Origin: Verrucomicrobiia bacterium
GTDB taxonomy: Bacteria; Verrucomicrobiota; Verrucomicrobiia; JADLBR01; JAIBCM01
Assembly (NCBI GenBank): GCA_019694135.1
Contig: JAIBCM010000003.1
Span: forward strand, 198,626-262,625
Direction: 5' to 3'
DNA: 64,000 nt
Positions 11,945 through 59,234 of this stretch are shown one piece after another; positions within the stretch are counted from its first letter, which is position 1, and the number at the start of each line of letters is the position of its first letter. The position numbers and the translations under genes are program-made. The notes under the pieces were generated by a model. It did no database searches. It had not been told where the DNA came from and was given only the letters and a program-made list of their open reading frames with translations.

Positions 11945-11956
11945 GGCTCAAGTTAG

Positions 11957-12002
11957 AATTATGAATTATGAATTAAAAAGTTAATTTTCATAATTCATAA
12001 TT
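11957..12002. repeat. AT-rich inverted repeat (16-bp arms, about 14-nt spacer) between aminotransferase stop and manA start
   Basis: aattatgaattatgaa ... ttcataattcataatt read directly from sequence; possible terminator or operator. Confidence 0.5.
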
Positions 12003-12007
12003 TTAAT

Positions 12008-25047: not shown

Positions 25048-25159
25048 TATCATCCTCGGGCTTGCTTTACACCTGTCCGAAGTGTGCCCAAAAACTCTAA
25101 GTGTTATCTTGCAACTCCAACCACACCTTTTGTCATCCTCGGGCTTGACCCGGGTATCC
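25048..25159. repeat. Two direct copies of a 17-bp motif (tatcatcctcgggcttg / tgtcatcctcgggcttg) about 83 bp apart
   Basis: Read directly from sequence; second copy followed by cccggg-centred palindrome. Same core (TGTCATCC..) recurs at 56125..56196 and 57825..57893. Confidence 0.6.
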
Positions 25160-25239
25160 ATATTCATAAGACATAATTAGCATCAAAGCATTAAGATTAA
25201 ACACTGGCTTCCCAATAGAGTTTCAGCTTAGCTCTGTTT

Positions 25240-27345
25240 ATGTCATTGGAAACAAGCCTTCTTAAAATGTTAAAACGCGAGGATTATTCGCCGGCAGACT
25301 TTCATACCTTACGAAAAAAATTAAACCTCAAAGCCCATCAAACTCACGAGTTTAGCCATCTCCTCGAACGGCTTGAAAAACAAGGAGTGATTGTTAAAAT
25401 CAGAAATAACGCATTTGCACTAGCAAAAGAAGCCGATCTCGTGACTGGCCGACTTCGTTTCAATAAAAATGGCGCAGCAACACTGATTCCTTTAGAACCC
25501 CTTTCCTTCCCTATCCATATTCCTTTTGAAAATACAGCTACTGCATTACACAACGACCTCGTAGTCGCTCGTCTGGAATCTCGTCCTATTCATCGGAGAG
25601 GAGTCTATCATAAAACCGGTATCGTCATAAAAATTTTGGAGCGCAGCCGAACTGAATTAGTCGGCACTTTGAAAAAAAGTCAGCAGTTTTATTATGTCGT
25701 TCCAGATGACGCCCGATTTCCGCACGACGTTTATGTGAAACCCTCCCTTCCCACTGCGCCACAATCCATTATTTCAACCGGCAGCAAAGTGCTGGTAAAA
25801 TTACTCGAATGGACAGATCGACAACGCAATCCTGAAGGAACCATCATCGAAATCCTGGGTAAACCGGAGGAGCCGGGCGTAGACATGCTTTCGATTCTCA
25901 AACACTACAATTTATCGAGCGATTTCCCTGATGAAGTTTTGGAAGAATGCCGCAATTTATCAAAAAACTTAGATGTAAAAAATCGCCGCGATTGCCGTTC
26001 CCATCTCGTCATCACCATCGACCCCGACGATGCTAAAGATTTCGACGATGCCATTAGTTTAGCTCCTGCCTCAGAAGGTCAATGGAAACTTTGGGTACAT
26101 ATCGCCGACGTCTCTCACTACGTCTCACCCGGCTCTCATTTAGACCGCGAAGCGCGCAAACGCGGCAATTCCACCTACCTCGTCGATCGCGTCATCCCGA
26201 TGTTGCCACCTATTTTAAGTAACGATCTTTGCTCACTCAAACCGCATGTTGACCGTCTAACCGCCTGTGTCGAATTTCTTATTTCGTCTAAAGGCAAAGT
26301 TATCAAAACTCAATTTTATCGAGCCATTATCCACTCCAAACATCGCTACACTTATCAAGAAGCGTTCAAAGTTTTACAACGACAACCCAAAAACTCGACA
26401 GAACGCATGCTGCACCAAATTCATCATTTAGCTCAAAAGTTTCGTCGCCAACGATTTTCAAGCGGTTCACTCGATCTTGATTTTCCTGAATCCAAAATTC
26501 GTCTCAACACCCAAGGTGAAGTGGTCGGAGTAGAGCGCGTCGAAAATGACATTTCTCATCAACTCATCGAAGAATGCATGCTCTTAGCTAATGAAGCTGT
26601 AGCAAAATATCTCAAAACCAAAAAGCGCCCCTCGCTTTATCGCATTCACGAAACGCCCGATCCGGAAAAACTCCAAGAATTTCGTGAAATGGTTTGCGCC
26701 TATCACATTCCATGTGGAGATTTAACTTCACGACGCGAAATACAAAAACTATTACAACACCTCAAAAAAGATTCATTAGGCCAGGCACTAAAAATTGGTT
26801 TATTACGCTCTTTAAAACGCGCCTGCTACTCCCCTCAACCCCTCGGCCACTATGGTCTAGCCAAAATCCATTACACCCACTTCACCTCACCTATCCGACG
26901 CTATGCGGACTTAATCGTGCATCGCAGCTTATTTGATAACGCCAAAAAATTCCTTGGCCAAGGCGCCTTGAAAGAAGTTTCTGAACATATTTCCTTAACC
27001 GAACGCAATTCTGCAGAAGCCGAACAAGACAGCAAAACCACTAAAATGCTACAGTTCTTGCAACAACAAATCACCTCCAACAAACGCGTCCCTTACGAAG
27101 CGCTGATTACCGATGTGCAAAATTTTGGATTCTTTGCAGATGTTCACGATCTTTGTCTGAGCGGTTTAGTCCCCGTTTCCTCCATGAAAAAAGATTTTTA
27201 TTTATTTGATGCCTCTCGCTTTCAACTACGCGGCAAGCGAACTCGTCACTTGATCGCTATCGGCGACAAAGTAAAAGTCCAAGTTCTGAATGTAGATTTT
27301 TACAAAAAACGCGTAGATTTTTCTTTAGCAACTGAGTCGTCTTAA
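25240..27345 (+). CDS. rnr: Ribonuclease R
   Basis: RNB catalytic block (DPDDAKDFDDA), cold-shock-like N-terminus, S1-like C-terminus; 701 aa. Confidence 0.9.
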   Translation: MSLETSLLKMLKREDYSPADFHTLRKKLNLKAHQTHEFSHLLERLEKQGVIVKIRNNAFALAKEADLVTGRLRFNKNGAATLIPLEPLSFPIHIPFENTATALHNDLVVARLESRPIHRRGVYHKTGIVIKILERSRTELVGTLKKSQQFYYVVPDDARFPHDVYVKPSLPTAPQSIISTGSKVLVKLLEWTDRQRNPEGTIIEILGKPEEPGVDMLSILKHYNLSSDFPDEVLEECRNLSKNLDVKNRRDCRSHLVITIDPDDAKDFDDAISLAPASEGQWKLWVHIADVSHYVSPGSHLDREARKRGNSTYLVDRVIPMLPPILSNDLCSLKPHVDRLTACVEFLISSKGKVIKTQFYRAIIHSKHRYTYQEAFKVLQRQPKNSTERMLHQIHHLAQKFRRQRFSSGSLDLDFPESKIRLNTQGEVVGVERVENDISHQLIEECMLLANEAVAKYLKTKKRPSLYRIHETPDPEKLQEFREMVCAYHIPCGDLTSRREIQKLLQHLKKDSLGQALKIGLLRSLKRACYSPQPLGHYGLAKIHYTHFTSPIRRYADLIVHRSLFDNAKKFLGQGALKEVSEHISLTERNSAEAEQDSKTTKMLQFLQQQITSNKRVPYEALITDVQNFGFFADVHDLCLSGLVPVSSMKKDFYLFDASRFQLRGKRTRHLIAIGDKVKVQVLNVDFYKKRVDFSLATESS

Positions 27346-32977: not shown

Positions 32978-33056
32978 AAACTATATTTTTTCGTTACTAA
33001 AAACAAAACAGGCGAGGAAAGTTAACCCTTCCTCACCTGCTAAAATGATATCTCAG

Positions 33057-33290
33057 CTACTTCTTAGCTTTAGTTTTTTTATTTCCAGCAATCAAAGTCG
33101 TGCCGTAGCGTTTACTAAATTTTTCTACGCGCCCCGCAGTATCGACAAATTTTTGCTGGCCAGTAAAGAAAGGATGACAAGCCGCACAAATACTAATATG
33201 CAAATCACGCTTCGTCGAACGAGTATGATAAGTTGCGCCACAGGAACAACGAATCGTTGTTTCCGCATAATCTGGGTGAATCTCAAGTTT
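33057..33290 (-). CDS. rpmE: 50S ribosomal protein L31
   Basis: MKLEIHPDY ... CxC...CxxCHP zinc-ribbon pattern; start set at Met 12 of tracked ORF. Confidence 0.85.
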
Positions 33291-33410
33291 CATAAACAAT
33301 ATTTCGTTAGCATGCTTTTTCATGAAGTCAACTGCCGCTTTTTAGACAAGAAATAACATTGATCCTCAGCTAGACTGGCTTATGCTAAAGATAAGAAACG
33401 ATAAGCTTTT

Positions 33411-43337: not shown

Positions 43338-43814
43338 CTACTCAGGGAAAAATTTTTCAAATTTTACCGTGCCATCTGCCATAACAACGACATTTCCCGA
43401 AGAATATATCTGATTTTTTCCAACAAACAAATAAAGTTGATCTCGATCCTCTGCATAAAAAAAATCTTTAGGACAAACTCCACCATAAAAAAAATCTGGT
43501 AGATCACCTGCTTGATGTTTGGGCTGAGTCGGATCATACCAAGCCTCATCAGGAACACCATAAGCTTTAAGCTGCCTTTGCCACCATTTCATATCACTGG
43601 ACAATTGTTCCGTAGATTTTGCAGTTTCTGGATTCATATCATCAAACATTTTTTGCGCTCCAGAATAAAGTTGTTGAGCACGAGAGAGACACTTGGTTGT
43701 ATTAATGTGCTTACGAAACGTGAAAAATGTGGGTATTGAAATCCCTATCAACAATGCGATTAGAGACATTGTAATTAAAAGTTCTAAAAGAGTAAAAGCC
43801 TTTTGCGATTTCAA
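43338..43814 (-). CDS. Prepilin-type N-terminal cleavage/methylation domain protein (pseudopilin-like)
   Basis: N-terminus KAFTLLELLITMSLIALLIGI matches prepilin leader plus hydrophobic helix. Confidence 0.7.
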   Translation of the reverse strand: MKSQKAFTLLELLITMSLIALLIGISIPTFFTFRKHINTTKCLSRAQQLYSGAQKMFDDMNPETAKSTEQLSSDMKWWQRQLKAYGVPDEAWYDPTQPKHQAGDLPDFFYGGVCPKDFFYAEDRDQLYLFVGKNQIYSSGNVVVMADGTVKFEKFFPE

Positions 43815-43825: not shown

Positions 43826-44491
43826 TTAACGATAAACTTTCGTTGTGGGAATACCAAAAAAATTCGGAACAGTAGAGATTTTTTTTGCCTCAACTATAAC
43901 ACCTGGGACTGTTTTAGAACTTCTTATAATAGTAACCCCAGTTTGCCTATCAAAATCCACACGCATATTATTGTTATCAGAGGTGTACTCAACGTTACCT
44001 CTCATTATTTTTCCAGGCGCTTTTTTCTGATAAAACATTATTCCTTCAACTAATAATTCAGCTGAAAATCTTTGAATAAATGGAATTTCTACGGGGCCAA
44101 ATGAAAAGGTAATATTCCTATTTTTAGAATCACCTGGTATAGAAATAATATTAGTCCCAGAACCTAGGGTGCTTCCAAAAGGTAAAACCAAAACGGATCC
44201 TCGCGTATTAACTTTTCTTCCCGCAACAAATAAAAACCCTTGCAAAACTCGACCTTCATGAAATCCCAGGGGGCTAAAATTTAAAGTAAAAGTAAAAAGT
44301 CCTCCATTCAAAACAAAAGTAAAACCTTCTCCAGTAGTATCATTAAAAGTAATAGGAATACGTTGTGGTCCAATCATACATTGATAAGTTCCAACAATTT
44401 TAATATCTCGTTCAGCTTGGGCTTTAAGCTGAGTACTGTTAACAAACACTAATGTTAAAACAACAAGTAAAATTATGATTTTTTGTTTCAT
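43826..44491 (-). CDS. Hypothetical secreted protein
   Basis: Signal peptide (MKQKIIILLVVLTLVFVNSTQLKA); no recognised motifs; sits between secretin and prepilin-like genes. Confidence 0.45.
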   Translation of the reverse strand: MKQKIIILLVVLTLVFVNSTQLKAQAERDIKIVGTYQCMIGPQRIPITFNDTTGEGFTFVLNGGLFTFTLNFSPLGFHEGRVLQGFLFVAGRKVNTRGSVLVLPFGSTLGSGTNIISIPGDSKNRNITFSFGPVEIPFIQRFSAELLVEGIMFYQKKAPGKIMRGNVEYTSDNNNMRVDFDRQTGVTIIRSSKTVPGVIVEAKKISTVPNFFGIPTTKVYR

Positions 44492-44495: not shown

Positions 44496-46892
44496 TTAGC
44501 GGCTTGCAGTTTTTTGTGAAGGTATGACTAATGGTTCAGGTGGATTGACTAATTCTCCTGTTGGCGTAATTAATTTAGGGGTCACAAAAATCACCAAATT
44601 CTTTTTAATCGATTGCTCTACATCTGAACGAAAAAATCGACCTAAAAGAGGAATATCGCCAAGAATGGGAATCTTATCTTTAATTTTTTGAACATCTTCA
44701 CGTAATAAACCGCCTAAAATAACGGTGGACCCATCTTTAACCTGAACACTTGTCTCAATACGTCGAGAATTAAATACTGGCATATTAATAACGTTTTCAG
44801 TTAAAACAAAGGTTTGATCCCCATCAGCTACGGTCATAGGTGTACCATAATTAATAAATCCTTCAAAATCTTCGACCAAAGGAACAAGATTAAGATCAAT
44901 CGTTTGATTATCAGGACCAACCTCCGGGGTGACGTTTAAAATAACACCGACTTCTCTATCAGTAAAATTAGAAGGTTGTGCCGGAGTAATAACAGGCGGC
45001 GGTTGACTAATAAGATTATTAACGTCATTTGCTCCACCACTTGATGTGGTAGGAGGCAATTCAGGAGCATCATAAGTATCAGCATAAGAAAATCGACGAA
45101 CAATTTTTATGGTAGCTTGTTCACCACTACGAGCCACCACTTTCGGCGCTGACAAAAGATCGACTGATTTTTTCTGAGCTAAAGTTCGGATTAAAACATC
45201 AATATTATATTTGGCAATACCCACAGCAAAATTAAAGCTATTGGGTATAGGTCTCGCATCAATACCGTTATTTTGAGAAAGCAAAGCATCGACTGAATTA
45301 GGTTTGATATGAGCCGAACTTCGTAATCCATCAAAATGGTTTAATCCATCCATATCAAGAGGGGAAAAATTACCTGATGGACGAGTATAATTTCCCTCTT
45401 TCACTACGTTCATTGCAATCGAAAGTTCATCAAAATCGGTTTGATTAAGTTCGATAAACTTGGCCTCAATTTCAACCTGAGCAGGAATATCGGTTGGAGA
45501 ACCAACTAAGGCATCAATGAGCTCCAAATTAGCCGGAGAATTTCGAACAGTCAATTTACTGGACGCTGAAGAATAAGAAGCGCTAGCGCCTTCAGGAAAA
45601 GTAACACCTCGTGATTCTAAAACTTTTCGAATATCGGTTTCTCGCTCAAATTGCACTTTTTCCATAAGAGAACGACTAAAAGATCTTCGTGTGCGAGAAC
45701 CCCCTTGTTGTTCTCCACCCGTTTCAACATTAAAAAAGTCTGGTTTAACACGATACTCTTTGGTCAATAACTGATCGGTTGGCGCTGTTAAAGGAAGAAT
45801 ACTCACCGAAAACTCATCCATTTGATATTTTAAATTGGCTAAACGCGTCGCATAACGAATGACTTCCTCTAAAGGAACACTCTGAAGATTTAATGTTACC
45901 TCAGATCCCATTGAGTCAGGAGTTAAACGCGAAACAAAATTAATACCCTTTCTTTCGGGATCGAGTTCTTTACTTTTTACATTGAGAAAATCAATAACAT
46001 CTAAAATGCTAGCTCGATCAAAAGCTACTTGAGGCAGAATAATCGTTTTTAATTTTCTGCTAAGATTTTCTACATTGGAACGTGTTAAAGGGGCATTGGC
46101 AAAAATTCCGGAATCCGAAATCACATCTTTGGGAATGGGCATTTCCCATTTTTCAGTAACTTCAGTCATGCCTTGAAAACGAGCTACTTCTTGAGCTTTT
46201 TTAGCATAACGCAACTTATGATCTAACACCTTATCTAATCGCTTACGTGCCGTGCTATTGAAAGGATCGATCGTCAAAATTTGCTGATATTTTTTCTCTG
46301 CCTCATCAAATTGAGCCGTGTCCAATAAATCATCACCCTCTTGCAACAAAGTATTCACATCTGCCACATCTTTTAAATAACGCGGAGTAATAGCAGGATT
46401 ATCACGTTCAATCATGGGCTTACCCTCTTGATCTAAAGCAATACCCATCGCAGCATACAAACTCGCTCGCTCTGCTTGAATGCGAGAATCTTTAGGCGCA
46501 AAAGATAACGCTTCATCAGCATTCGCTCTAGCTTCATCCAAAAGGTTGGCTTTTAAATTTTCATGAGCTAATTGTATCAAGGCAACGGCTGCCCCATCAT
46601 AAGCCTTATTTTGCAACGGCGCGGTCGCCGGAGAAGGAGCCGGTAAAAGAGCTACAATCGCACGATATTTTTCTAAAGCTTCTTTATAACCTTGCGCTTC
46701 TAACAAAGCATTTCCCTCTCTGAGTAAAGCAGTTCCTCGAATCACAGCTTGTTGACGCTTTAATACTGCAGTTTGAGAAGCTTTTTGTGCGCTGATATAA
46801 TCGGACTGATCAACATTCCCATTCCCTAGCAAAGCCAAAGGTGCTATACCTAATAAAAAGAAACAAAAAATTTTATAATAACAAAGTTTCAT
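44496..46892 (-). CDS. Secretin-family outer-membrane channel protein (PilQ/GspD-like), copy 2
   Basis: C-terminal secretin signature (VILGGLLREDVQKIKDKIPILGDIPLLGRFFRS); signal peptide; TPR-like N-terminal region. Confidence 0.8.
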   Translation of the reverse strand: MKLCYYKIFCFFLLGIAPLALLGNGNVDQSDYISAQKASQTAVLKRQQAVIRGTALLREGNALLEAQGYKEALEKYRAIVALLPAPSPATAPLQNKAYDGAAVALIQLAHENLKANLLDEARANADEALSFAPKDSRIQAERASLYAAMGIALDQEGKPMIERDNPAITPRYLKDVADVNTLLQEGDDLLDTAQFDEAEKKYQQILTIDPFNSTARKRLDKVLDHKLRYAKKAQEVARFQGMTEVTEKWEMPIPKDVISDSGIFANAPLTRSNVENLSRKLKTIILPQVAFDRASILDVIDFLNVKSKELDPERKGINFVSRLTPDSMGSEVTLNLQSVPLEEVIRYATRLANLKYQMDEFSVSILPLTAPTDQLLTKEYRVKPDFFNVETGGEQQGGSRTRRSFSRSLMEKVQFERETDIRKVLESRGVTFPEGASASYSSASSKLTVRNSPANLELIDALVGSPTDIPAQVEIEAKFIELNQTDFDELSIAMNVVKEGNYTRPSGNFSPLDMDGLNHFDGLRSSAHIKPNSVDALLSQNNGIDARPIPNSFNFAVGIAKYNIDVLIRTLAQKKSVDLLSAPKVVARSGEQATIKIVRRFSYADTYDAPELPPTTSSGGANDVNNLISQPPPVITPAQPSNFTDREVGVILNVTPEVGPDNQTIDLNLVPLVEDFEGFINYGTPMTVADGDQTFVLTENVINMPVFNSRRIETSVQVKDGSTVILGGLLREDVQKIKDKIPILGDIPLLGRFFRSDVEQSIKKNLVIFVTPKLITPTGELVNPPEPLVIPSQKTASR

Positions 46893-49454
46893 TTATTTCA
46901 TCCTTCCCTGAGGCTCATTTACTATCCTCAACTCCTGAGGCTCTTGAGTCGAATCCCAACGAGGAACCTCAGCAAAAGTAGGATTATTATCAAAGCTTTG
47001 TGTATCTTCAAAATTACGTTTATTAAAAAGTTCTCCATCAGATCGAATCAAATTACAGGTAACAAAAATCAACAGATTCTTTTTAATGCTTTGATCAATT
47101 TTCGAACGGAAAAGACGCCCTAATAATGGTAAATCGCCCAGTAAAGGAATTTTATCATCAACTTTTTGAATGTCTTCCCGGATTAATCCACCTAATAAAA
47201 CTGTTTGACCATCTTCAATACTCAATCGCGTTTTAACCTCTCGATAATTAAAAACAGGTGTGTTAATAATATTATCAGCGACTTTAACTGCTTGAGACGT
47301 TCCCAAGTCTAAAGCATTAATAGGATTTCCATAATTAATGAATCCTTCAAAATCGACAACTCTAGGTGTTAACTGAAGATCAATCGTTTGATTATCAGGA
47401 TAAAGTTGAGGATTGACCGTCAAAATGACGCCGATCTGCTCATTTTTAAAAGTCGAAGGAGTTGAAGGAGTCACAGCACGGTAGCCATTTCCACTCGGCA
47501 ACTGTGAAATAGACGCATCAATTTGAGGTGGCTCAATAGCTTGAGGATCAGGATAAAAAAAGTCGCGAGCAATACGAATTTCAGCATCTTGAGAAGGTTT
47601 AGTGACTACTTTGGGCACAGCTAAAAGATCAGCACCCGTTTTTTGTGAAAGCGCATAAACTAACAATTCAAACTTATACTTACTTAATGAAATCGCACTT
47701 TGAAACGCTGTTCCTAAAGGCCCTGCAAAAGCGGTAGCGGCTCCTGCTAATAAAGCATCAAAAGTATTAGCATTAATAGCATTTCCTCCCACTGCTAAAT
47801 CTACCGGTAATCCCAAAACCTCCGTTGAAGCCGAAGGAGCTGAAGTTCTTAAACCAGGAGTATCAGTTGGAGCCGATTGAGAACGTCCTCTTCGATTAAT
47901 ATTCCAACGGAAAGAAAGCTCATCCAAATCAGTCTGATTCACCTCCATAAAACGAGTTTCGATTTGAACCTGAGGAACTTCCTGACTTTCCGAACTAATC
48001 ACACTTTCAATCAAAGCTAAATTATCCAATGTATTTCGAACTACGAGCAAACTTCCATTCGACAAATAATTAGCCGAGGAGCCGGGAGGAAATTGAACAC
48101 CATAAGTTTCTAATTTTGTCTTCACTTCTTCACGAGCAATATTGACTGATTCACTTAACGTGCCACCGTCCTTGCTCTCAATTTTCGCGCCAATAAAACC
48201 CGCTGGCACTTGGAACGTGCGAGTAAATAACGCCTCAATATTTTCTGAAGCCGGCGCCACTAAAACTGCATATTCCTCCACTTTATAGATCAAATCCGCT
48301 TGTTTTGCGATAAGATCCAAAACCGCGGCCAAAGGCAAATTTTCTAAGTTCAAAGTAATGCGACGCGCATCAATCGTTTCAATCGAAACCTGCTCGCCAG
48401 CGCTCGGTTGACTTTCTGCAGCATCTGAAACAGTTGCAATCGTGGTCTTCAAAACAAAATTCAAACCTTGCCCAGTCGGATCTAACTCTTTGGATTTAGC
48501 CTGTAAAAAAGTCACCGCTTCTTCCACCGATGCTTCGTCAAAATTAATTTTATCAATAATAATATTGTTTAACTTTTCCTCAATACGTGCCGTATTCGAC
48601 AAACTCGCAGCAGAAACACTTCTCTCTTCGCGAGGCTTCAAAATATTACGATTCACCGGATTACTCCAAGCTTTCGTCACTTCATAAAGCATTTCTTTAC
48701 GACTATTCTCTTTAGCATCTTTGGCATATTTCAAACGCAGTTGAGAAACTCGCTTCAAACCGTCCTGTGCAGCCTTATTATAAGGATCAATCGCCAAAAC
48801 CTTTTTAAAGTTTTCTTCTGACTTAATATATTGCCCAGTTTCGCGCTGTTTTTCGCCTAAATCCAAAAGCCGTTTCACTTCTCCAACAGCTTGCACAAAC
48901 TCAGGTGTCACTGCAGAATTGGGCTCAATTACCAATCCCTCACCCGATTGTTTTTGAATCGTCTTAGCAAGTTTCTGCAACTCCTTATCTTCAGGAGAAT
49001 AAGCTAACGCCTCAGAAACATAGCCTCCTGCTGTCTGAAATTTTCGCGTTTCCAAAGCCTCCTCAGCCAAACGCATATTAGCCATCGTCAACCCCTCAGC
49101 CGCAGCCTGATAAAGATCGAAAGTATTCGTTGTCATCGGCAAATTCTGCAAAACAAAACGATAACGATCCGCTGCAGAAACATATTCTTTAGCGGAATAA
49201 AGCTGTTCGCCTTCCACTAAAGCTTTTTTGCTGCCAGTAAAAAGTTTTTGTCGTCGCGCTGTTTCATTTTGCAAAGCGCGATCAACTGCTGCATTTTCAG
49301 CATAAACCATGTTTTGCGTCAAAAAAATGGAACCTAAGAAAAAACCAAGACAAAAGAAACGATTGCTACCCTTCAATCTCATAAAGTAAGTCGATAGTGA
49401 ATAGAGCCTTTCTTGAATGCAAGAATTAATTTCCCTTATTTTTAAAATATTCAA
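46893..49454 (-). CDS. Secretin-family outer-membrane channel protein (PilQ/GspD-like), copy 1
   Basis: C-terminal secretin signature (VLLGGLIREDIQKVDDKIPLLGDLPLLGRLFRS); paralogous throughout to copy 2; start possibly the internal Met before the hydrophobic segment. Confidence 0.8.
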   Translation of the reverse strand: MNILKIREINSCIQERLYSLSTYFMRLKGSNRFFCLGFFLGSIFLTQNMVYAENAAVDRALQNETARRQKLFTGSKKALVEGEQLYSAKEYVSAADRYRFVLQNLPMTTNTFDLYQAAAEGLTMANMRLAEEALETRKFQTAGGYVSEALAYSPEDKELQKLAKTIQKQSGEGLVIEPNSAVTPEFVQAVGEVKRLLDLGEKQRETGQYIKSEENFKKVLAIDPYNKAAQDGLKRVSQLRLKYAKDAKENSRKEMLYEVTKAWSNPVNRNILKPREERSVSAASLSNTARIEEKLNNIIIDKINFDEASVEEAVTFLQAKSKELDPTGQGLNFVLKTTIATVSDAAESQPSAGEQVSIETIDARRITLNLENLPLAAVLDLIAKQADLIYKVEEYAVLVAPASENIEALFTRTFQVPAGFIGAKIESKDGGTLSESVNIAREEVKTKLETYGVQFPPGSSANYLSNGSLLVVRNTLDNLALIESVISSESQEVPQVQIETRFMEVNQTDLDELSFRWNINRRGRSQSAPTDTPGLRTSAPSASTEVLGLPVDLAVGGNAINANTFDALLAGAATAFAGPLGTAFQSAISLSKYKFELLVYALSQKTGADLLAVPKVVTKPSQDAEIRIARDFFYPDPQAIEPPQIDASISQLPSGNGYRAVTPSTPSTFKNEQIGVILTVNPQLYPDNQTIDLQLTPRVVDFEGFINYGNPINALDLGTSQAVKVADNIINTPVFNYREVKTRLSIEDGQTVLLGGLIREDIQKVDDKIPLLGDLPLLGRLFRSKIDQSIKKNLLIFVTCNLIRSDGELFNKRNFEDTQSFDNNPTFAEVPRWDSTQEPQELRIVNEPQGRMK

Positions 49455-49460
49455 AATTAA

Positions 49461-50426
49461 TTATTGACTTGGAATCTGTAGCATTTCCTTTTCCGTGCCA
49501 TCTTCCGATAAAGCCATAATCTCCGCACCGGTTTCACTCAAATTTTTCACGCGATAATTTATTCCGCGAAACGTAATCTCTTGAGCTTTTTCTACAGGAT
49601 AATTTTTATTTTCTAATAAATCTACCAACGTTCCCGTTAAAATGGGCGCATCCGACACCTGTTTCATTACCAACGTTAAACGTTCGCCTGTCACCTCATT
49701 CACCACGTCCAACTCCGATTCATCATAAGGCAACATCACTCCTTGCATTTTAGGATTTTCTCGTTCCCCTTTTTTCTCGCGATATTCTTCCACTCGCCAA
49801 TCTTCAAACTTATCACCTTTTTTCACAGAATTGGAACGATGTCTTCGATCGCGCGGATGGGAAAGCTTGACTTGGAAAAATGTCTGTCCTCCCACTTCGT
49901 TGACCCCAGTAAACTCCAGCGAATACGGTTTCGCCTCAAAATTCGTCAAACGCAATTTCGTTGTAAAAGGGGGATGCGATTCCGCCTTCAAGGGATCCGT
50001 CTTGCCCAAATACTCATCCTTATTCGTAAAACCATCTTTATCGGGATCCTGATCTGCGACGGTTGGATCACTCAGACTAAAACCATACTGTTCTTTCCAC
50101 AATGGCGCAATCCCATCAACCCCCGCTTCATCAGGTCGATACAATTTCAACTTACGCTCATCCGCCAACCATTCCAACTTTCGAGAAATAAACAAACGAT
50201 GCCCATTCTCAGCAGCCTTCCACTCCTCATTTTGATCCAACTCTTTTCCCAAATCTTGATATTGATCCAAATCCTCACGGACCTTTGCATTGCCACCCAA
50301 CACTTCCGCCACCGCTTGGGGAGGAGCTGTAGAAAAAGACAACGCTTTAAAAATGGCGACGCCCAATAAAATTAACAACACGCTAAACAACAACGTCCAT
50401 TCAATATTTTTTTTTGCCCAATTCAT
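49461..50426 (-). CDS. Hypothetical membrane-anchored protein (possible PilP-like component)
   Basis: N-terminal TM helix; position between pilO-like gene and secretin; assignment by context only. Confidence 0.4.
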   Translation of the reverse strand: MNWAKKNIEWTLLFSVLLILLGVAIFKALSFSTAPPQAVAEVLGGNAKVREDLDQYQDLGKELDQNEEWKAAENGHRLFISRKLEWLADERKLKLYRPDEAGVDGIAPLWKEQYGFSLSDPTVADQDPDKDGFTNKDEYLGKTDPLKAESHPPFTTKLRLTNFEAKPYSLEFTGVNEVGGQTFFQVKLSHPRDRRHRSNSVKKGDKFEDWRVEEYREKKGERENPKMQGVMLPYDESELDVVNEVTGERLTLVMKQVSDAPILTGTLVDLLENKNYPVEKAQEITFRGINYRVKNLSETGAEIMALSEDGTEKEMLQIPSQ

Positions 50427-51394
50427 TTTTTAACACTCACATTTTCATCACTCTGCCAATTAATATAATCAATTCTCATCGTAATGCGAATCGTCTCCTC
50501 ACCTAAAATCAAATTAGCCGCCACACTTTTAGGACCTTCCGAAGTTGCGCCCTTAGTCTTCAAATCCTCTACTGTCGGCGGTTCCCCTCGTTCATTAATA
50601 ACCTCCAAAGAACGCACTATCCAAAAAGGCTGAGCGCCATTTTCCTGGCCTTCCCCACCTCTTTCATTCAAAGCATCCACAATTTTTCTCAAACTCGTAT
50701 CCGTTCCGACAAATTGAAAAACAAATGGAAGAGTTCGATAAAAAAGCCCTTCGCGATCCAATGACATAGCGGGCAACAACTCTCCCAACTCCCCCTCACT
50801 TCCACGCACAGGTTGTCGAGTTGCTGCGGCCGCTCCAGAACTTTGGGTTAGCAAATCTTCCACAGGCAAACGCGACACACTCTTTAACTCATTAATTCCC
50901 GATTCAAATAACAACTGCGTCAACCGCTCAATAATTCTCAACTCTTGCGTTAAAAACACCGTCGCCTCCGGCGCTGGAATACTGGTTAAATAGCGACCAA
51001 ACCCAAACGAAAAATTTTCTGGTAATGTAACAGGATTTCTTGCCTTTTGCGCCATCTCCACCAAACGATCGCGCGTATTGCGAAATTCCGTTTGAAAATC
51101 GATCGGATTCAAAGCCTCGCCTTGAATTTGTCCCTGCTTCAATTCAGCAATAGCCGGCTGTAAATAACTTTCCAACTGCTGCGCCTTCTCCTGATAAACT
51201 TTCGTATTGGCCTCACTCGGAAACACCGATTGCCCACGATAACGCGATAACGTCATCGCCTGCGACTCCAAATCCGTATTCAACGAACTCACCCGTTGCC
51301 CTTCATGCCACCAAAAATAACCGCCCACTGCACTAATCACTATCGCCACCAACAGCGCCTGAGAAGTTTCACGATTTTTCTTAAACCAATCCAT
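50423..51394 (-). CDS. PilO-like pilus assembly protein (putative)
   Basis: N-terminal TM helix followed by coiled-coil-like region; follows pilM-pilN fusion; 4-nt overlap with downstream gene. Confidence 0.45.
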   Translation of the reverse strand: MDWFKKNRETSQALLVAIVISAVGGYFWWHEGQRVSSLNTDLESQAMTLSRYRGQSVFPSEANTKVYQEKAQQLESYLQPAIAELKQGQIQGEALNPIDFQTEFRNTRDRLVEMAQKARNPVTLPENFSFGFGRYLTSIPAPEATVFLTQELRIIERLTQLLFESGINELKSVSRLPVEDLLTQSSGAAAATRQPVRGSEGELGELLPAMSLDREGLFYRTLPFVFQFVGTDTSLRKIVDALNERGGEGQENGAQPFWIVRSLEVINERGEPPTVEDLKTKGATSEGPKSVAANLILGEETIRITMRIDYINWQSDENVSVKK

Positions 51395-51423
51395 ATTACT
51401 TTTTTCTCATTTCTCTATTTTTC

Positions 51424-53205
51424 TTAAGGCACCAAAGGAATCGGCGTCTTTAGCTTTGCCTTAATTTTAAAATTCAATGCCAACCGCTTTTCTTCCACCG
51501 AAACCACATCTACCGTCACCAACTTGGGATCGGCTATATCCTGCTCTGTCATCGCAAAAAATTGAGATTGCGGAAATTTCTTCAAAAAATTACCAATCAC
51601 TTCCTGTCCATCAATTCGCAAATCCGGCGTTTGCAAATCAGCCGGATTAATATTTTCATACGACCCCTCAATCAATAAATGCGTGATCTGCGTCGCATCC
51701 GCAGCAGCAGACTGAGGCTTGCCCGTAGTGCGCTTGGGCGGCGCTGTAATCGGACTCACCACCATCGGCAACTCCCGATCATCAAAAGCCGGTTTCAAAG
51801 CAGTAATCCAGACTCCCACAGGAATCATCGTATTTAACTCCTTCAACAAACCTGGCCAATAACGACGCATCTTAATTAAGCCATCAATCTGCTCCGCCTC
51901 ACTCAAAGCCTTCTCATATCGCGTCTGCACTGCTTTCAACTCACGATTCGCCGACTCCAAAGTGCCTACCTCGCCCGAAATCGTTGCTAACTGCGCTTGC
52001 AAAATATTTCCTTTACGCCAATGACTCGCCCATAGCACCCCAAACAAAACCACCAAAGCCGCCGCCAATGCCACTTGCAAACTGCGTCTTTTTCCCGAAG
52101 CTCGTGACGCCTCAACACTTGCCGGCACCAAATTAATATCTAACGGACAAGGCCCTGTTGCATGCAACGCCAAACCCACCGTCTCGCCCAACCAAGCCGC
52201 CGAACGCACCAACGTCTCACGCGAAATCGAAGGGGCCACAGCCACATTCCGTAAAGGATTAAAAAATTCAATTGGCACACGCAACTTTTCCGAAAAGAAA
52301 AGATCCATATAAGCCAACAAACTCGATCCACCAGTTAACAAAATTCGCATCGGAGCGCTGCCCCCTTGTTGACTGCGATAAGACACGATCGAACGCGACA
52401 CTTCTGAATGCAAACGCGTTAAAATGCCGCGAATCACCTTGGAAATGCGGGCCGCCGTTGCATCATCGGGATCTGCATAAGCGCCACCTAACCCCACAAA
52501 CCCTTTTTCCTGCTTCAACTGCTCTGCTTCAGCAAACGACAATTGCATATCCGTTGCAATCGCCTGAGTAATCTGATTGCCACCAATCGGCACACCACGA
52601 ATGAAAATTTTACCATCTTCCGCAAAAATGAGTTGAGTCGATTTCGCGCCAATATCTAAAATCAACGTGCAACCTTCATAATCGGGATAATTAAAACGAA
52701 ACGCATTATAAAGCGATAAAGGTCCCACGCCTACACGCTCCGCAACACAACCCGTCGCGCTCACCCCCGAATTGATACGATCCAACATCTCTGCCTTAAT
52801 CGCAACAATCACGGCCTCCAAATCCGAATTCTTCACCGATTGAACTAACTGATAATCCCACACCACTTGATCCATGGGGAAAGGAACATTCTGTTGCGCT
52901 TCAAAGCGCACCATCTGCGTAACCTGCTCAGGAGCTGAAGGAGGCAACTTCACAAAACGCGTAAAAACCGATTGACCCGAAATACAATAATAAATCGAAG
53001 TGCCTTGACTTATCTTGCCCGTCAAAACCCGCCGCAACACATTGGCAACAGCTTTCTCTCGCTCCTCTTCCGAGGCTCCTTCCAACGCAATTGTCTCAAT
53101 GACTGCCCCCTCCAACAATAAGCCACCCGCTGTAGAACTATAAAAACCCACACTAATACTGTGGCTACCTAAATTAATCGCAATTACCCTACCGCTTTTA
53201 CTCAT
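51424..53205 (-). CDS. pilM: Type IV pilus assembly protein PilM fused to PilN-like domain
   Basis: Actin-like ATPase N-terminal part (IAINLGSHSISVG...); internal TM helix (LQVALAAALVVLFGVLWA) preceded by LDINLVP PilN-type start; 593 aa. Confidence 0.7.
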   Translation of the reverse strand: MSKSGRVIAINLGSHSISVGFYSSTAGGLLLEGAVIETIALEGASEEEREKAVANVLRRVLTGKISQGTSIYYCISGQSVFTRFVKLPPSAPEQVTQMVRFEAQQNVPFPMDQVVWDYQLVQSVKNSDLEAVIVAIKAEMLDRINSGVSATGCVAERVGVGPLSLYNAFRFNYPDYEGCTLILDIGAKSTQLIFAEDGKIFIRGVPIGGNQITQAIATDMQLSFAEAEQLKQEKGFVGLGGAYADPDDATAARISKVIRGILTRLHSEVSRSIVSYRSQQGGSAPMRILLTGGSSLLAYMDLFFSEKLRVPIEFFNPLRNVAVAPSISRETLVRSAAWLGETVGLALHATGPCPLDINLVPASVEASRASGKRRSLQVALAAALVVLFGVLWASHWRKGNILQAQLATISGEVGTLESANRELKAVQTRYEKALSEAEQIDGLIKMRRYWPGLLKELNTMIPVGVWITALKPAFDDRELPMVVSPITAPPKRTTGKPQSAAADATQITHLLIEGSYENINPADLQTPDLRIDGQEVIGNFLKKFPQSQFFAMTEQDIADPKLVTVDVVSVEEKRLALNFKIKAKLKTPIPLVP

Positions 53206-53252
53206 CGTTTCTCCAAGACTATTTTCAAAACCATTTCAAAAAAATGATGCCA

Positions 53253-54032
53253 TTAAGGACTGTTTGTCTCCATCATAGTAGTCACCTCCGGTCGAGGCAA
53301 AGGCGCCGTCATGCGAGGCATCGCGCTACTACCACCACTACCCGACTCTCTTAAAGGCGGATAATGTTCCCAATAATCCATCGCCCAAGGCGTCTTCGTA
53401 ATTGGCATTAACACCCCTGTCTTACCACCTTTTAAAAACCAGTCTGCTTCCGCCACCCGCTCAGCGCGACGTGTCTCCGCCCAAGACACTCGCTTTCCAT
53501 CTACAAACACTTCCGCTGCCATCGCTGACTGCTTAAAAGCTTGTTCTCCGCCATACATTTCCACCTGAAACGGCGACAAATAAGCCGAAGCAAAATAACC
53601 TTCGCCCAAAGCCAAAGGCCCGTAATGCAATTCTATCGACAAAACTTCCTGATCCAAATCCTGCGGCCGTTGCGGCTGCGGCGTTAAAAGATGAAGCTTC
53701 ACCATCACATCCTGAAAAAAACCGCCCCCCGGCTGCTCCAACTCTTCCCGAGACAATCGCGGATTCAAACTATATTCCACCTCAACTTCCAACCATTTCA
53801 TACGCGGCCCTCTTAAAGGATCCGAAGGCCGTTTCAATTCCACAGCATTCACACCACGTTTCGGCGTTTCAACAAATTCTATTTTAATATTATTAGGTTT
53901 AATCTCAAACCCTGGCACCTGGTCAAAATTTTCCTGATCAGAAAAAGGCATTGGATCTTGAGGCTCTTGTCCTCCTACCACCATACAACTCCCTACCAAT
54001 GCCGCTACTAAGATAAAAAAGTGTCGGCTCAT
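53253..54032 (-). CDS. Hypothetical secreted protein, first gene of the pilus-like locus
   Basis: Signal peptide (MSRHFFILVAALVGSCMVVG); Pro/Gln-rich; no recognised motifs. Confidence 0.4.
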   Translation of the reverse strand: MSRHFFILVAALVGSCMVVGGQEPQDPMPFSDQENFDQVPGFEIKPNNIKIEFVETPKRGVNAVELKRPSDPLRGPRMKWLEVEVEYSLNPRLSREELEQPGGGFFQDVMVKLHLLTPQPQRPQDLDQEVLSIELHYGPLALGEGYFASAYLSPFQVEMYGGEQAFKQSAMAAEVFVDGKRVSWAETRRAERVAEADWFLKGGKTGVLMPITKTPWAMDYWEHYPPLRESGSGGSSAMPRMTAPLPRPEVTTMMETNSP

Positions 54033-54208
54033 ACCTACCTATTTGCCAAAAAAAGAGTATAGGTCAAACTTTATATTAGTGATTATTAACTCGTGACCAG
54101 TGACAAGTAATCGGCTATTAATCACCAACTAATCTAGATAGTGTTTAGTATCGTCACGAAATAGCTAAAAGGTAAACGTATTAAGACTAGATCTCCAGGT
54201 CACCGCCT

Positions 54209-55981: not shown

Positions 55982-56124
55982 TACATCCCCACTCTAAAAG
56001 AGATTTAACCAAAAATTCAAACAGGAAATTTGAATAATAACACTTCTTTAATGATTTAGCTTTAGCTATGACGCACAAAGCTGGGATGTTTGATTTAGGT
56101 AAAGTCGCCCAATTCAATCATATC

Positions 56125-56196
56125 ATATCATCCTCGAACTCGATCCGAGAATCCACATTCCCACCCCATTGTCATTCCCGACTCGATCGAGAATCC
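56125..56196. repeat. Two tandem copies of about 29-bp unit (atcatcctcgaactcgatccgagaatcca / gtcattcccgactcgatcgagaatcca)
   Basis: Read directly; contains 10-bp palindrome ctcgatcgag; shares core with repeats at 25048 and 57825. Confidence 0.55.
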
Positions 56197-56354
56197 ATTC
56201 TTTATTTCTCTGGATCCCCGGGTCACCAAAGCGGGATGAGGAGTGTAGTTGACATTTTAGGATAGCGCTTAGCGCTCTTTGGGACTTCAGACAATTATAT
56301 TAAAGCTTAACCGGGGCTCCCATTGTTCAGCAGTTACCTATTCCCGACAATCTT

Positions 56355-57746
56355 TTACCAAGGACTAGGCATCCCCCAACCCTTAGTCTGAGCAGCTTCA
56401 CCAGCAATCCTAGCAGGTTCTTGAAAAGCTTGGCGGAGTTTATCGCCAGCTGGCCTGACCAAATGTTCATTGGCTAGTTCAGCTCCTTTACCAACAGCCG
56501 GGGCTACCATCTCTCCCACCTTACCACCCGCTGCTATGCCTGTTTTTACTACTGGTACAACCACAGGAGCAACTACATGCTCTGCTACAGGCAACACCAC
56601 GTGGTCAACTGCTGCATCTACTGCCGGGTTAATGGCATAACAAAGTCCTACAGTCTCCACACAATCAGCTACATCAATCACATCAAGAGCGGCCTCTCCT
56701 AATTCAGCCCCCCTCTTTAACGCTTCTCTAGCCACCACACCCGCTCCCAAAGGATGCTCTCGACCAGACGGCTCTGGCTCTTCAGAAACCTGACTCACGT
56801 AAGCCACACCGCTTACCACAACAATCTTTTCAGATTTTGCCAGATAATTCCTAGATCTTGATTCGAGACTATTCAACAACTTATAGAAACATGCATCCGC
56901 CTCACGATAATCGTCCCAAGCTTGACGAAGTCTATCCGTATTTGGCTTTATTTGGGTATTGCCTAACTCTTCTGATAGAACACGTGAAAAAATTTCCAAT
57001 TTCTCATTCTGATTAATAGTAACCTGTAAAAATTCGTCAAAATACTCAGCCAAAGCTTTAGCTTCAGCAGCAAGTTCACGACTAGCCTTACTAGGATTTA
57101 ATGCTGCAATCTCATTAGCATGATGCAAAGCTTCTTTAGATATCTTATTCATTTCTTTCATAGAATGAATGAAACCTTTATTATCAGATATTATTCCTCC
57201 TACATCACTCAAAATATCGTTCCAAAAATAAATTTCTTCAGATGAATGAATTTTTTTTGGGGCTTTTGGGGCAATCGAAGATGATGGATCACCAAAATAA
57301 TTATCCATTCTTTTTCTGATGCTCGCCAAAGCCTTAATGTAGGAAAAATCAAAACCCCTAACTCCTCTATTAAATTCATGTCCAGCCTGAGCTAAACGAG
57401 CAGCGTGATAATAAGGCTTATCAACATGGCTCGCAAGCCTAGCGAATCGTGCCTTTTTATAAGCTTCTTGAGCCTCTTGAATTCCATAAAGATCTTTATA
57501 TGCTTCATCACAAGCATGATTAGCTTCTAAGAAAGCTTTTTCATTTTCTGGAGTAGAATCGGCTCGAAATCTTTGTTTCGCCAGAGTCATCTGGTCATGC
57601 GCTTCGTATGCTAGCTTATGAGCCTCTTCCAATTCCTCTGCAGCAAAGGGTGGGATCTCTATCTCTCTAGGCTTCGAACCGCTAATCCTATCCCAAGCAT
57701 CACCAAGTTTTCTTCTCCAACCACTTTTGCTACCACCTTTACCCAT
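56355..57746 (-). CDS. Hypothetical Ala-rich protein, compositionally atypical
   Basis: 463 aa, no recognised catalytic motifs; N-terminus MGKGGSKSGWRRK; codon usage looks different from neighbours by eye (frequent CTAG); flanked by repeat loci. Confidence 0.5.
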   Translation of the reverse strand: MGKGGSKSGWRRKLGDAWDRISGSKPREIEIPPFAAEELEEAHKLAYEAHDQMTLAKQRFRADSTPENEKAFLEANHACDEAYKDLYGIQEAQEAYKKARFARLASHVDKPYYHAARLAQAGHEFNRGVRGFDFSYIKALASIRKRMDNYFGDPSSSIAPKAPKKIHSSEEIYFWNDILSDVGGIISDNKGFIHSMKEMNKISKEALHHANEIAALNPSKASRELAAEAKALAEYFDEFLQVTINQNEKLEIFSRVLSEELGNTQIKPNTDRLRQAWDDYREADACFYKLLNSLESRSRNYLAKSEKIVVVSGVAYVSQVSEEPEPSGREHPLGAGVVAREALKRGAELGEAALDVIDVADCVETVGLCYAINPAVDAAVDHVVLPVAEHVVAPVVVPVVKTGIAAGGKVGEMVAPAVGKGAELANEHLVRPAGDKLRQAFQEPARIAGEAAQTKGWGMPSPW

Positions 57747-57824
57747 AATAATTTCCTTAAATTTCCTCTTTTTAAGAATTAAACATAGAAAAAAATTTTG
57801 TCAAATACCCCCTCGCTACCAAAC

Positions 57825-57893
57825 TTGTCATCCGTCATCCTCACCCTTACAGAAAATGCCAAATGCCAACCTTGTCATCCTCGTCCGTCAGCC
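57825..57893. repeat. Two copies of cttgtcatcc(g/t)... motif, period about 46 bp
   Basis: cttgtcatccgtcatcctcaccc and cttgtcatcctcgtccgtcagcc, with aaatgccaaatgccaa between; same core as 25048 and 56125 loci. Confidence 0.55.
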
Positions 57894-57983
57894 GATGGAT
57901 TTAGCAGCACTCAAAAGTTTATATCTTCTCACTACGTCAAATGACGTATTTCCAAACCGGAAAAAATATATAATAAAGAAATA

Positions 57984-59234
57984 ATGAAAATCCAAATTAG
58001 CCTTTTACTTCTTTTTATCGGCCTCTGCCAATCGACCTGGAGCGCAATCAATGACAACTTTGCAAACCGCATCCCGCTCGTAGGTCTTCCGGTTACGGCT
58101 CAACTCCTAACCAACACCGACGCCACTGTCGAAGCCGGCGAACCTCAACATGCGGGTCTCGCTGACACCACCAACTCCGTCTGGTGGACCTGGACAGCGC
58201 CTGCTAATGGCGATTACGCTTTTTTAACCCTAGGCAGCGATTTCGATACCGTGCTTGCGCTTTATGAAGGAAACGCCGTCAACATGCTTACTACTTTAGC
58301 CTCGAATAATGATGCCAATTTAGGTGGCACTAACATCGTTAAACGCAGCTATCTTCATCTTAATCTAACCAATAGCCAAACCGTCCAAATCGCAGTATCC
58401 GGCACGGGCCCTGATAAAAGTAATAAAGGCCAAATCAAACTACAAATTGCCCAACGCCCGATTAATGACGATTTTGCCAATGCTCAACCCCTTTCCGGCC
58501 CCACACTTACCACAAACGCCACCACCCTTGGCGCTTCCAAAGAATCGAGCGAACCTCAACTTCAACCCACCGCCCCCGGCAGCGCTTCAATCTGGTGGCA
58601 ATGGTCGCCCCCCACCAACGGCTCTTATGTCGTCTCAACAGAAGGCACAGGTTTTGACTCTCTCTTAGGCGTTTACACCGGCAACTCACTCAACGCACTC
58701 ACACAAATACTACGCGCCAATAACACCAGCTCCAACTTAAACGAAATCGCATCCTTCCAAGCCGATGCTAACACAACTTACTTTATTACCGTCGATGGCA
58801 ATGGACCACTGCAATTCGGCAATGTCGTCCTTAGCATTTATCCAGGAGCCGTCGAAAATTTTATTGACCCGAATCTGCTGGGTTTGGAAATCTCAATTCG
58901 CGCCCCTAAAAACGATGGAAAAACTTATAAAAAACGTGCCAGACGTGGCGTTCGAGCCCGAGCCAAATTCGTAGACACCACCGGCACCAACACCATCAAA
59001 AAAATTGAATACGCCGTCGTCAGTGGCACCAATTTAACCAACAGCGCCATTCCTAATCCTTTCATCAGCTTCGAAAAAGTTAAAATTCGTAAAAAAGGTA
59101 AAGTAGCTCGCGGTCGCACCACCATCGCATCCAACCTACCCAGTGGCGAAGTTCGCTTGGAAGTGCGCGCAGTCATCAACGACACCAACACCACCAGCAC
59201 CGTGAAACGAACATTTAATTTGATTCGAAAGTAG
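57984..59234 (+). CDS. Secreted protein with two tandem internal repeats of about 130 aa
   Basis: Signal peptide (MKIQISLLLLFIGLCQSTWSA); repeats start INDNFANRIPL... and INDDFANAQPL..., each with W-x-W and G-x-Y...FD..L..Y blocks; basic C-terminal region. Confidence 0.6.
   Translation: MKIQISLLLLFIGLCQSTWSAINDNFANRIPLVGLPVTAQLLTNTDATVEAGEPQHAGLADTTNSVWWTWTAPANGDYAFLTLGSDFDTVLALYEGNAVNMLTTLASNNDANLGGTNIVKRSYLHLNLTNSQTVQIAVSGTGPDKSNKGQIKLQIAQRPINDDFANAQPLSGPTLTTNATTLGASKESSEPQLQPTAPGSASIWWQWSPPTNGSYVVSTEGTGFDSLLGVYTGNSLNALTQILRANNTSSNLNEIASFQADANTTYFITVDGNGPLQFGNVVLSIYPGAVENFIDPNLLGLEISIRAPKNDGKTYKKRARRGVRARAKFVDTTGTNTIKKIEYAVVSGTNLTNSAIPNPFISFEKVKIRKKGKVARGRTTIASNLPSGEVRLEVRAVINDTNTTSTVKRTFNLIRK

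Follow-up and report, generated by a model that had tools for sequence, protein, structure and literature searches.

The DNA analyzed here is a 64,000-nucleotide stretch of a Verrucomicrobiia metagenome-assembled genome (MAG; assembly GCA_019694135.1, contig JAIBCM010000003.1, positions 198,626 to 262,625 of the forward strand), which we refer to as the window. On its minus strand, between a divergent gene for a 416-aa protein and a permease-Usp gene, lies a gene for a 463-aa protein that is 100% identical to the NCBI entry 'MAG: hypothetical protein K1X66_05785 [Verrucomicrobiae bacterium]', from a contig of 405 kb. Its build is that of a mosaic, in which a basic N-terminal helix is followed by a swappable four-helix-bundle module and by a C-terminal domain of ~135 aa that ends in W..P.PW. 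Database searches show a very small family that is confined to a single uncultured lineage of Verrucomicrobia. The gene has moved in this genome, with its own promoter, ~1.9 kb across the permease gene and has left an empty ancestral slot behind.

The open reading frame (ORF; Table 1) is a real gene. It is conserved in several genomes, and its C-terminal third has a ratio of nonsynonymous to synonymous substitution rates (dN/dS) of 0.24–0.42. The start codon is credible because a ribosome-binding-like AAGGAAA is found 7 nt 5′ of it and because the surrounding block, ...TTGACA...AAGGAAATTAT(T/C)ATGG(G/C)TAAAGGTG, is kept in the related genome L001. The promoter block, including the first codons, is 91% identical by BLASTN to L001 9095-9200, immediately 5′ of the L001 homolog, and is partly conserved in L002. 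A consensus sigma-70 scan did not call it. The loci compared in this and the following sections were L001 (MAG ABC2.39), L002, L003, L005, and L007; that of a second copy in the same genome (P0002, below) was left out.

A small family with variable central modules

A word-indexed search of 5.8 billion proteins returned the protein itself (P0001) and one paralog from the same MAG (P0002, K1X66_06850). An exhaustive profile search with HMMER, run over 1.84 billion representatives of clusters that comprise ~15 billion proteins, added P0003 (from Logan runs DRR4384xx), P0004 and P0005 (both from MAG Verrucomicrobiia ABC2.39, GCA_041395165), and the distant P0006, and a local profile search found a tandem paralog beside P0006 in L005. 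The family therefore totals ~8 members, two per MAG, all of them from Verrucomicrobia MAGs or metagenomes. Sequence and profile searches turned up neither eukaryotic homologs nor domains of effector or eukaryote-like type. No convincing match to the protein or the family was obtained in Pfam, NCBIfam, PHROGs, PADLOC, or PDB sequences, in which only weak coiled-coil-type noise appeared; a DUF1978 match (E = 0.013) was under its cut-off and was set aside as noise. Querying the 5.8-billion-protein set with a profile of the aligned C-terminal domains brought no new relative, and neither did tblastn against phages and plasmids, a scan of viral contigs (IMG/VR), or two scans of JGI metagenome contigs. 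The two tandem paralogs of the distant lineage (L005 8910-9878 and 10001-10990; Logan ERR15459717 / JGI 3300037311) have C-terminal domains that are 56% identical, each has its own TTGACA-containing upstream region, and no pilus cluster is nearby.

Seven family N-termini were compared: MGKGGSKSGWRRK (the 463-aa protein), MAKKKWYN, MAKGVWRQRGRRIW, MAKGKRGIFRRMW, MGSKKRIVERV, MAVNVVRKIFRR, and MAIGFIRKLVRR. All are basic, with a net charge of +4 to +5 over the first 20 residues, and x-F/W-R-R is often present. The amphipathic-helix signal is strong in most members and weaker in P0002 and P0004 (hydrophobic moments 0.57–0.88). AlphaFold2 (AF2) placed a helix at residues 9–21 of the 463-aa protein, with low confidence. 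For P0003 (L002 2882-2914) and P0005 (L007 9800-10000), the true starts probably lie upstream of the called ones, at in-frame ATGs from which the proteins would begin MAKGKRGIFRRMW... and MGSKKRIVERV..., in line with the family N-terminus.

The C-terminal ~135 residues consist of 17% Val, 17% Ala, 10% Gly, and 7% Pro, and their motifs include HPLG, ADCxxTxGxCY, VVPVVK, and KLxxAFxEPARIA in addition to the terminal W..P.PW. Two Cys residues of the domain are conserved, with the spacing C-x6-C. Neither sequence reading nor a hydropathy scan of the protein revealed a hydrophobic Sec or Tat signal, a lipobox, or a clean transmembrane stretch. The C-terminal domains cluster by locus; those of P0001, P0004, and P0003 are 60–67% identical to one another and 46–52% identical to those of P0002 and P0005. 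The central modules break this grouping. P0003 has a module of the P0002/P0005 type (E values of 1e-14 to 1e-50), and the modules of P0001 and P0004 match nothing, each other included (E > 1). Close relatives thus have entirely different central modules, and the modules have been shuffled between the two loci of the family. In structural searches with Foldseek, the bundle resembled generic four-helix bundles (designed bundles, talin/vinculin/alpha-catenin, IpaD, and ClyA/NheA) at identities of only 3–15%; designed proteins ranked first, no match had E < 0.08, and the likeness says nothing on function.

Only the last third of the gene aligns to the L001 homolog, at 61–67% amino acid identity and 74% DNA identity; the neighboring genes are mostly 90–97% identical at the amino acid level, with a rhodanese gene at 79%. 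The nonsynonymous rate (dN) of the C-terminal domain is 0.23 versus 0.02–0.03 in the neighbors, or ~8–10 times higher, and dN/dS is 0.42 (range 0.24–0.42) versus 0.06–0.13. The synonymous rate (dS) of 0.55 is comparable to the 0.23–0.45 of the neighbors. A raised dN with a similar dS implies that the C-terminal domain, though orthologous-looking, is under weak constraint; the central module was either replaced or changed past the point of recognition. We considered a diversity-generating retroelement target or a silent cassette and rejected both, as no part of the gene is repeated elsewhere in the window; no reverse-transcriptase-like ORF and no template repeat were seen in it.

A codon-choice signature carried by the family

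Codon usage unlike that of the neighboring genes, frequent CTAG tetranucleotides, and more GC at silent positions had been noted by eye in the initial annotation. The first of these impressions was confirmed. The tetranucleotide distance of the gene is the largest among all equal-length sliding windows of the 64 kb, and its dinucleotide delta* lies at the 99.7th percentile of such windows. AGA or AGG (AGR) accounts for 17 of the 26 Arg codons (65%; 12% in the other 49 ORFs), and GCT for 57% of Ala codons, against 33% elsewhere. NCG and CGN codons are avoided. The observed/expected (o/e) ratio of CpG is 0.61–0.62, as compared with ~1.0–1.5 in most other genes (a few are at 0.75–0.84), and since intergenic DNA has a ratio of 1.11, the gene does not simply resemble unselected DNA. 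By Karlin B, which measures codon bias globally as a distance, the gene does not stand out (rank 20 of 50). The impression about silent positions pointed in the wrong direction, with the GC content of third codon positions (GC3) at 0.29 in the gene versus 0.43–0.51 in adjacent genes. The GC-rich 3′ third is due to first positions (GC1 of 0.7–0.86, from Ala/Val/Gly/Pro codons) and not to silent ones.

CTAG is indeed frequent. It occurs 10 times in 1392 nt (7.2/kb) versus 1.0/kb in the remaining window, with 1.4 sites expected (Poisson P = 2e-6), and is the most over-represented tetranucleotide of the gene (z = 9.5), followed by AGCT. Eight of the 10 sites are junctions of an NCT codon (Ala, Pro, or Ser) with an AGN codon (AGA, AGG, or AGT), and a Markov model of the gene's own trinucleotides already predicts 7.4 sites; the excess is therefore a by-product of codon choice. 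Across the window, CTAG is found at 2.5/kb in intergenic DNA and 0.84/kb in coding DNA, and the ~60-nt filler of the emptied slot (54100-54135) contains two sites, GATCTAGTC and TATCTAGAT.

What makes the composition odd is a signature of codon choice (AGA/AGG for Arg, NCT codons, CpG avoidance) that the whole family carries. Homologs in the close relatives L001, L002, and L007 have AGR fractions of 0.39–0.54 and CpG o/e of 0.73–0.85. On the L005 branch, one paralog has the signature (AGR 0.47, CpG o/e 0.84) and P0006 has it more weakly (0.27 and 1.06). Genes next to the homologs are at AGR ~0.1 and CpG o/e ~1.2, except for a P-type ATPase gene in L007 (0.39 and 0.99). The sole Rfam match in the window is a tRNA-Met and not a tRNA for rare Arg codons. 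Four other window genes have a milder signature (AGR 0.25–0.58, CpG o/e 0.75–0.84, low GC3): those for a reprolysin-like M12 peptidase (37204-38490), a 221-aa protein without assigned function (43826-44491), a protein with a prepilin-type N-methylation motif (43338-43814), and a CHAP-domain protein (29322-29996). This suggests a class of accessory genes with AGR-rich, CpG-poor codon usage.

Relocation of the gene beside a pilus-like cluster

In L001, L002, and L003 the gene order is 416-aa gene, permease-Usp gene, homolog, Amuc_1102 gene, with the homolog directly upstream of Amuc_1102 on the same strand, 81–170 nt away. In the window it is 416-aa gene, 463-aa gene, permease-Usp gene, Amuc_1102-like gene; the 463-aa gene is still co-directional with the latter but one gene further off. 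BLASTN delimited a window-specific segment of 1.9 kb (56032-57925) that is absent from that slot in the three relatives, and the DNA between the permease and Amuc_1102-like genes keeps both flanks of the homolog's position in the relatives without the gene. The outer flanks of the segment have no counterpart in L001, L002, L003, or the other compared sequences. Neither a target-site duplication nor terminal inverted repeats were found at the junctions (56031/56032 and 57925/57926), and no integrase, transposase, or recombinase ORF is nearby. By parsimony, the window arrangement is the derived one, reached by local relocation or by duplication followed by loss, and is associated with a short repeat family that is present in this genome and lacking from the relatives' compared loci.

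Bracketing of the gene by TGTCATCC-type repeats, proposed from the initial reading, was borne out in substance, with two copies downstream (56126 and 56170) and one upstream (57873). The 8-mer TGTCATCC has five exact copies in the window against 1.3 expected. The longer motif TRTCATYCYCG also has five, all intergenic and on the plus strand; the remaining two are at 25048 and 25131. A short imperfect palindrome, such as ATTCCCGA-CTCGA-TCGAGAAT, follows every copy, and a 33-nt unit at 56128-56160 matches 25133-25165. A degenerate double copy of the motif lies at 57826-57843. The strict motif is absent from 92 kb of the relatives' loci, but in L001 the homologous block has a one-base variant of the core at its 5′ edge (CGAGGATGAC at L001 9094; TGAGGATGAC at 57843 in the window), so that the conserved promoter block begins with a repeat-core copy in both genomes. 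The downstream flank does not fold better than shuffled sequences (z = −0.74), and a structured RNA or terminator there is not significant. The distant pair of copies (25048-25141, TRTCATCCTCG followed by GGCTTG...) is 83 nt apart and sits between a small ORF (~24633-25030) and an RNase R gene (25240..27345); one of the two is followed by the palindrome CGGGCTTGACCCGGG. Motif matches at 33169 and 33220 were discounted as chance, as they fall inside a small unlisted gene (32978-33410, minus strand) that reads like ribosomal protein L31, and so was a match at 5643 inside a gene.

These repeats may be akin to repetitive extragenic palindromes (REP), a likeness that we treat as a lead. Like REP elements and bacterial interspersed mosaic elements (BIMEs), they are short, strictly intergenic, multi-copy, and often paired, with a fixed head (TRTCATCCTCG) followed by an imperfect palindrome. 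Unlike them, they have only five copies in 64 kb, their stems are weak (7–8 bp with mismatches), and no REP-associated tyrosine transposase (RAYT) was seen within the window.

Beyond the emptied slot, 44496-54032 is a complete Amuc_1098-1102-type pilus-like cluster, such as has been described in Akkermansia (PMC5332112). The Amuc_1100-like protein has a handful of relatives among 5.8 billion proteins. In L001, the permease-Usp (7289-8845) and PilM-like (11368-12897) ORFs are shortened (518 versus 590 aa and 509 versus 593 aa); the DNA alignment to the window runs on through the missing parts, so frameshifts or assembly errors are likely. On the other side of the 463-aa gene, the divergent plus-strand neighbor (57984-59234) encodes a protein of 416 aa with a signal peptide and an internal duplication, in which INDNFANRIPL... 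and INDDFANAQPL... each start a domain of ~140 aa with weak PPC-type matches. In both codon-bias distance (0.654) and GC3 (0.505), this gene ranks first in the window. A conserved partnership with the 416-aa protein was considered on the strength of a secreted protein encoded upstream in L005 (BLASTP E = 8e-4) and was dropped, as hhalign gave a probability of 2.4%.

Table 1. Coordinates of the 463-aa gene, its parts and flanks, and the adjacent pilus-like cluster (window numbering)
Feature	Position	Strand	Remarks
ORF	56355..57746	minus	463 aa; single long ORF in the ORF listing
Promoter and 5′ untranslated region block	57734..57842	minus	in order: GAGGATGACGGATGACAAG repeat core, TTGACA (−35-like), AT-rich spacer, AAGGAAA, ATG
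Basic N-terminal segment, codons 1-22	57681..57746	minus	carries the non-conserved MGKGGS start
Variable helical-bundle module, codons 35-310	56817..57644	minus	unique to this genome
Conserved C-terminal domain, codons 331-463	56358..56756	minus	Val/Ala/Gly/Pro-rich
Upstream flank, window-specific	57843..57925	none	holds repeat copy TGTCATCCTCG (57873-57883, + strand)
Downstream flank, window-specific	56032..56354	none	repeat copies 56126-56136 and 56170-56180, + strand
Empty ancestral slot, between permease and Amuc_1102-like genes	54033..54208	none	aligns to L001 flanks 9051-9100 and 10439-10527
Secretin genes	44496..46892 and 46893..49454	minus	Pfam
Gene of the pilus-like cluster, unknown	49461..50426	minus	
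Amuc_1100-family gene	50423..51394	minus	NCBI name 'Amuc_1100 family pilus-like protein'
PilM-like gene	51424..53205	minus	long C-terminal extension; Pfam
Amuc_1102-like gene	53253..54032	minus	via ortholog in L002

No support for a lipidation signal at the N-terminus

The 463-aa protein starts with MGKGGSKSGWRR, and its first residues, MGKGGSKS, had been noted in the initial annotation to resemble a eukaryotic N-myristoylation consensus, as used by some host-targeted bacterial effectors, with the remark that this is weak evidence by itself. Plant pathogens have N-myristoylated type III effectors of this kind, the class of AvrRpm1, AvrB, and AvrPto. The protein resembles that class in having Met-Gly, a small residue at position 6, basic residues nearby, and no Sec signal; it differs in having Lys at position 3, a Gly2 and Ser6 that are not conserved, no effector domain, and no secretion system in the window.

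The effector idea found no support when the PROSITE pattern PS00008, G-{EDRKHPFYW}-x(2)-[STAGCN]-{P} (as quoted in PMC9405953), was applied as a regular expression. Gly2 is present after the initiator Met of the 463-aa protein, yet the pattern fails because Lys3 is an excluded residue, and none of the seven family N-termini passes it; Lys or Arg occupies excluded positions. Gly2 occurs in two of the seven and Ala2 in the remainder, and Ser/Thr6 in one, the Ser6 of the 463-aa protein itself. Relative to the L001 homolog, Gly2 results from a single G/C change in codon 2, and MG starts are found in 4 of the 50 ORFs of the window. No injection system is visible within the 64 kb, and no link of the organism to a eukaryotic host emerged. 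What the family conserves at the N-terminus is basic character and, in most members, helix amphipathicity, not a lipidation motif. The MGxxxS start would be an accident of one nucleotide.

Discussion

We read the locus as a lineage-restricted, mosaic, fast-evolving, and relocated gene whose product would be localized by its conserved ends and would bind a partner through its bundle, and we hold this joint reading with about even confidence. Its mechanistic half, taken alone, deserves much less. In that half, the conserved ends would confer a common localization, by membrane association, anchoring, or export independent of a signal peptide, and the variable bundle would provide specificity for a fast-changing partner such as a phage, a competitor, or a host surface.

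Several observations weigh against this. AF2 gives no confident fold for the C-terminal domain (pLDDT of 26–45, in context and alone), which also lacks an uncharged stretch of 19 residues; its best Kyte-Doolittle window (1.83) contains Glu and His. No homology ties either conserved end to membranes or export. A dN/dS below 1 gives no sign of positive selection, and the module differences could be old alleles instead of the product of an arms race. The rearrangement rests on MAG assemblies, and adjacency to the pilus cluster amounts to a single evolutionary observation, with the L007 and L005 loci elsewhere.

Each of the rival explanations has some support and none has passed a test. Horizontal acquisition, as the initial annotation suggested, is right in so far as the gene looks foreign in composition and sits in a different slot; its recent import as a whole does not fit a lineage-confined family with a shared codon signature. 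According to such an import model, an unrelated donor with low CpG would have supplied a mobile cassette, and the flanking repeats would have inserted it between the permease gene and the 416-aa gene. In keeping with it, the gene is the top compositional outlier of the window, the 1.9-kb segment is missing from that slot in L001, L002, and L003, the flank repeat is missing from the relatives' compared loci bar one core variant in L001, and the central module has no relative anywhere searched. The same loci supply the counterevidence. Homologs reside in the same neighborhood of L001, L002, and L003, so the gene is not absent from close relatives, and an emptied ancestral slot is present. Recent whole-gene import is disfavored because the promoter (91% identical) and the C-terminal domain (74% DNA identity, dS near that of the neighbors) stand near background synonymous divergence to the resident copy of the sister genome. 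The genome has a paralog, the relatives' homologs carry the same codon signature, no integrase or transposase, target-site duplication, or inverted ends were found, and the phage, plasmid, and viral collections searched hold no relative. We consider this model unlikely; at most, the central module could have been imported. Import of the module alone, or an ancient acquisition by the lineage, may have occurred. An N-myristoylated effector, which would be delivered into a eukaryotic host cell and acylated on Gly2 by the host N-myristoyltransferase so as to reach host membranes, would account for MGKGGSKS with its Gly2, Ser6, and flanking Lys, for the missing Sec signal, and for the CpG-poor, AGR-rich codon usage, and the gene adjoins an Amuc_1100-type cluster whose Akkermansia counterpart interacts with host TLR2 (PMC5332112). 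The family data (Gly2 in two of seven, Ser6 here only, PS00008 passed by none), the single base that separates Gly2 from the L001 homolog, the local frequency of MG starts, and the lack of eukaryotic homologs, of an effector or eukaryote-like domain, and of an injection system visible in the window make such an effector very improbable.

A single-gene conflict system, either anti-phage abortive infection or a contact-independent toxin, would pair a variable helical sensor or specificity module with a conserved, membrane-perturbing C-terminal domain. This would suit a module that is hypervariable between close relatives, an atypical composition, a variable position, and a hydrophobic, Val/Ala/Gly-rich C-terminal domain, and there are weak, non-significant structural echoes of helical toxins of the ClyA, NheA, and XaxA types. 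Those echoes are typical of any long four-helix bundle, with designed bundles first, and no transmembrane helix is predicted. PADLOC had no match for the 463-aa protein and only marginal ones for one paralog (E = 0.01–0.02), no Pfam, NCBIfam, or PHROG match was convincing, and neither an adjacent immunity-like small gene nor a defense island surrounds the gene; we regard a conflict system as quite unlikely. We would place no more faith in an accessory component or substrate of the neighboring Amuc_1098-1102-type pilus/secretin apparatus. The homolog's position directly upstream of Amuc_1102 on the same strand in L001, L002, and L003 speaks for it, as does the retained co-direction of the window gene one gene further away, and the identity of the cluster is backed by the NCBI name of the Amuc_1100-family protein and by PilM and secretin Pfam matches. 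Against it, no cluster of this type is found near the second paralog (L007) or the tandem pair of the distant branch (L005), and the protein lacks a prepilin or Sec signal. The gene, which has a promoter block of its own, was also kept in this genome after it left the side of the cluster, and PMC5332112 describes no counterpart in the Akkermansia cluster.

For the present, the significance of the mosaic, relocated gene goes little beyond annotation. A tempting label, that of a host-targeted lipidated effector, is removed, and a mosaic, fast-evolving orphan family with a persistent codon signature is documented in a rarely sampled Verrucomicrobia lineage that is related to Akkermansia by a gene cluster. 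The persistence of AGA/AGG-rich, CpG-poor usage across species-level divergence is an unexplained observation; this usage and the module shuffling beside an Amuc_1100-type cluster are what we find most intriguing. If the conserved ends were a targeting signal tied to the Amuc_1100-type apparatus, the protein would be a first candidate client or partner of this machine, whose Akkermansia version is of medical interest. A broader proposal is a class of cassette-swapping proteins without signal peptides. In these, the Val/Pro-rich C-terminal domain and the basic N-terminal helix would form a delivery or anchoring signal, possibly for the adjacent pilus/secretin machine, and the helical bundle would be the payload or specificity module; diversity would come from recombination between the two loci and relocation from short repeats. 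We think it improbable that such a class exists.

Modular effectors of known systems offer a further comparison. Both the Xanthomonas type IV secretion system (T4SS) effectors (X-Tfe, with the XVIPCD domain) and the Bartonella Bep proteins (with the BID domain) join a conserved C-terminal delivery domain to variable N-terminal modules. The family described here differs from them in having no sequence or profile similarity to any described domain, in its modules, which are plain helical bundles and not enzymes, and in the absence of a cognate immunity gene and of a T4SS in view. As regards polymorphic toxins and effectors more widely, no recognizable toxin, enzyme, or trafficking domain was detected with Pfam, NCBIfam, PADLOC, or PDB, and no small co-directional ORF that could be an immunity gene is conserved downstream in the window or in the relatives' loci. 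What the family shares with polymorphic toxins and effectors is a conserved module joined to interchangeable variable ones; with X-Tfe and Bep proteins it shares a conserved C-terminal domain of ~120–135 aa, N-terminal modules that can be exchanged, and the presence of several paralogs in one genome.

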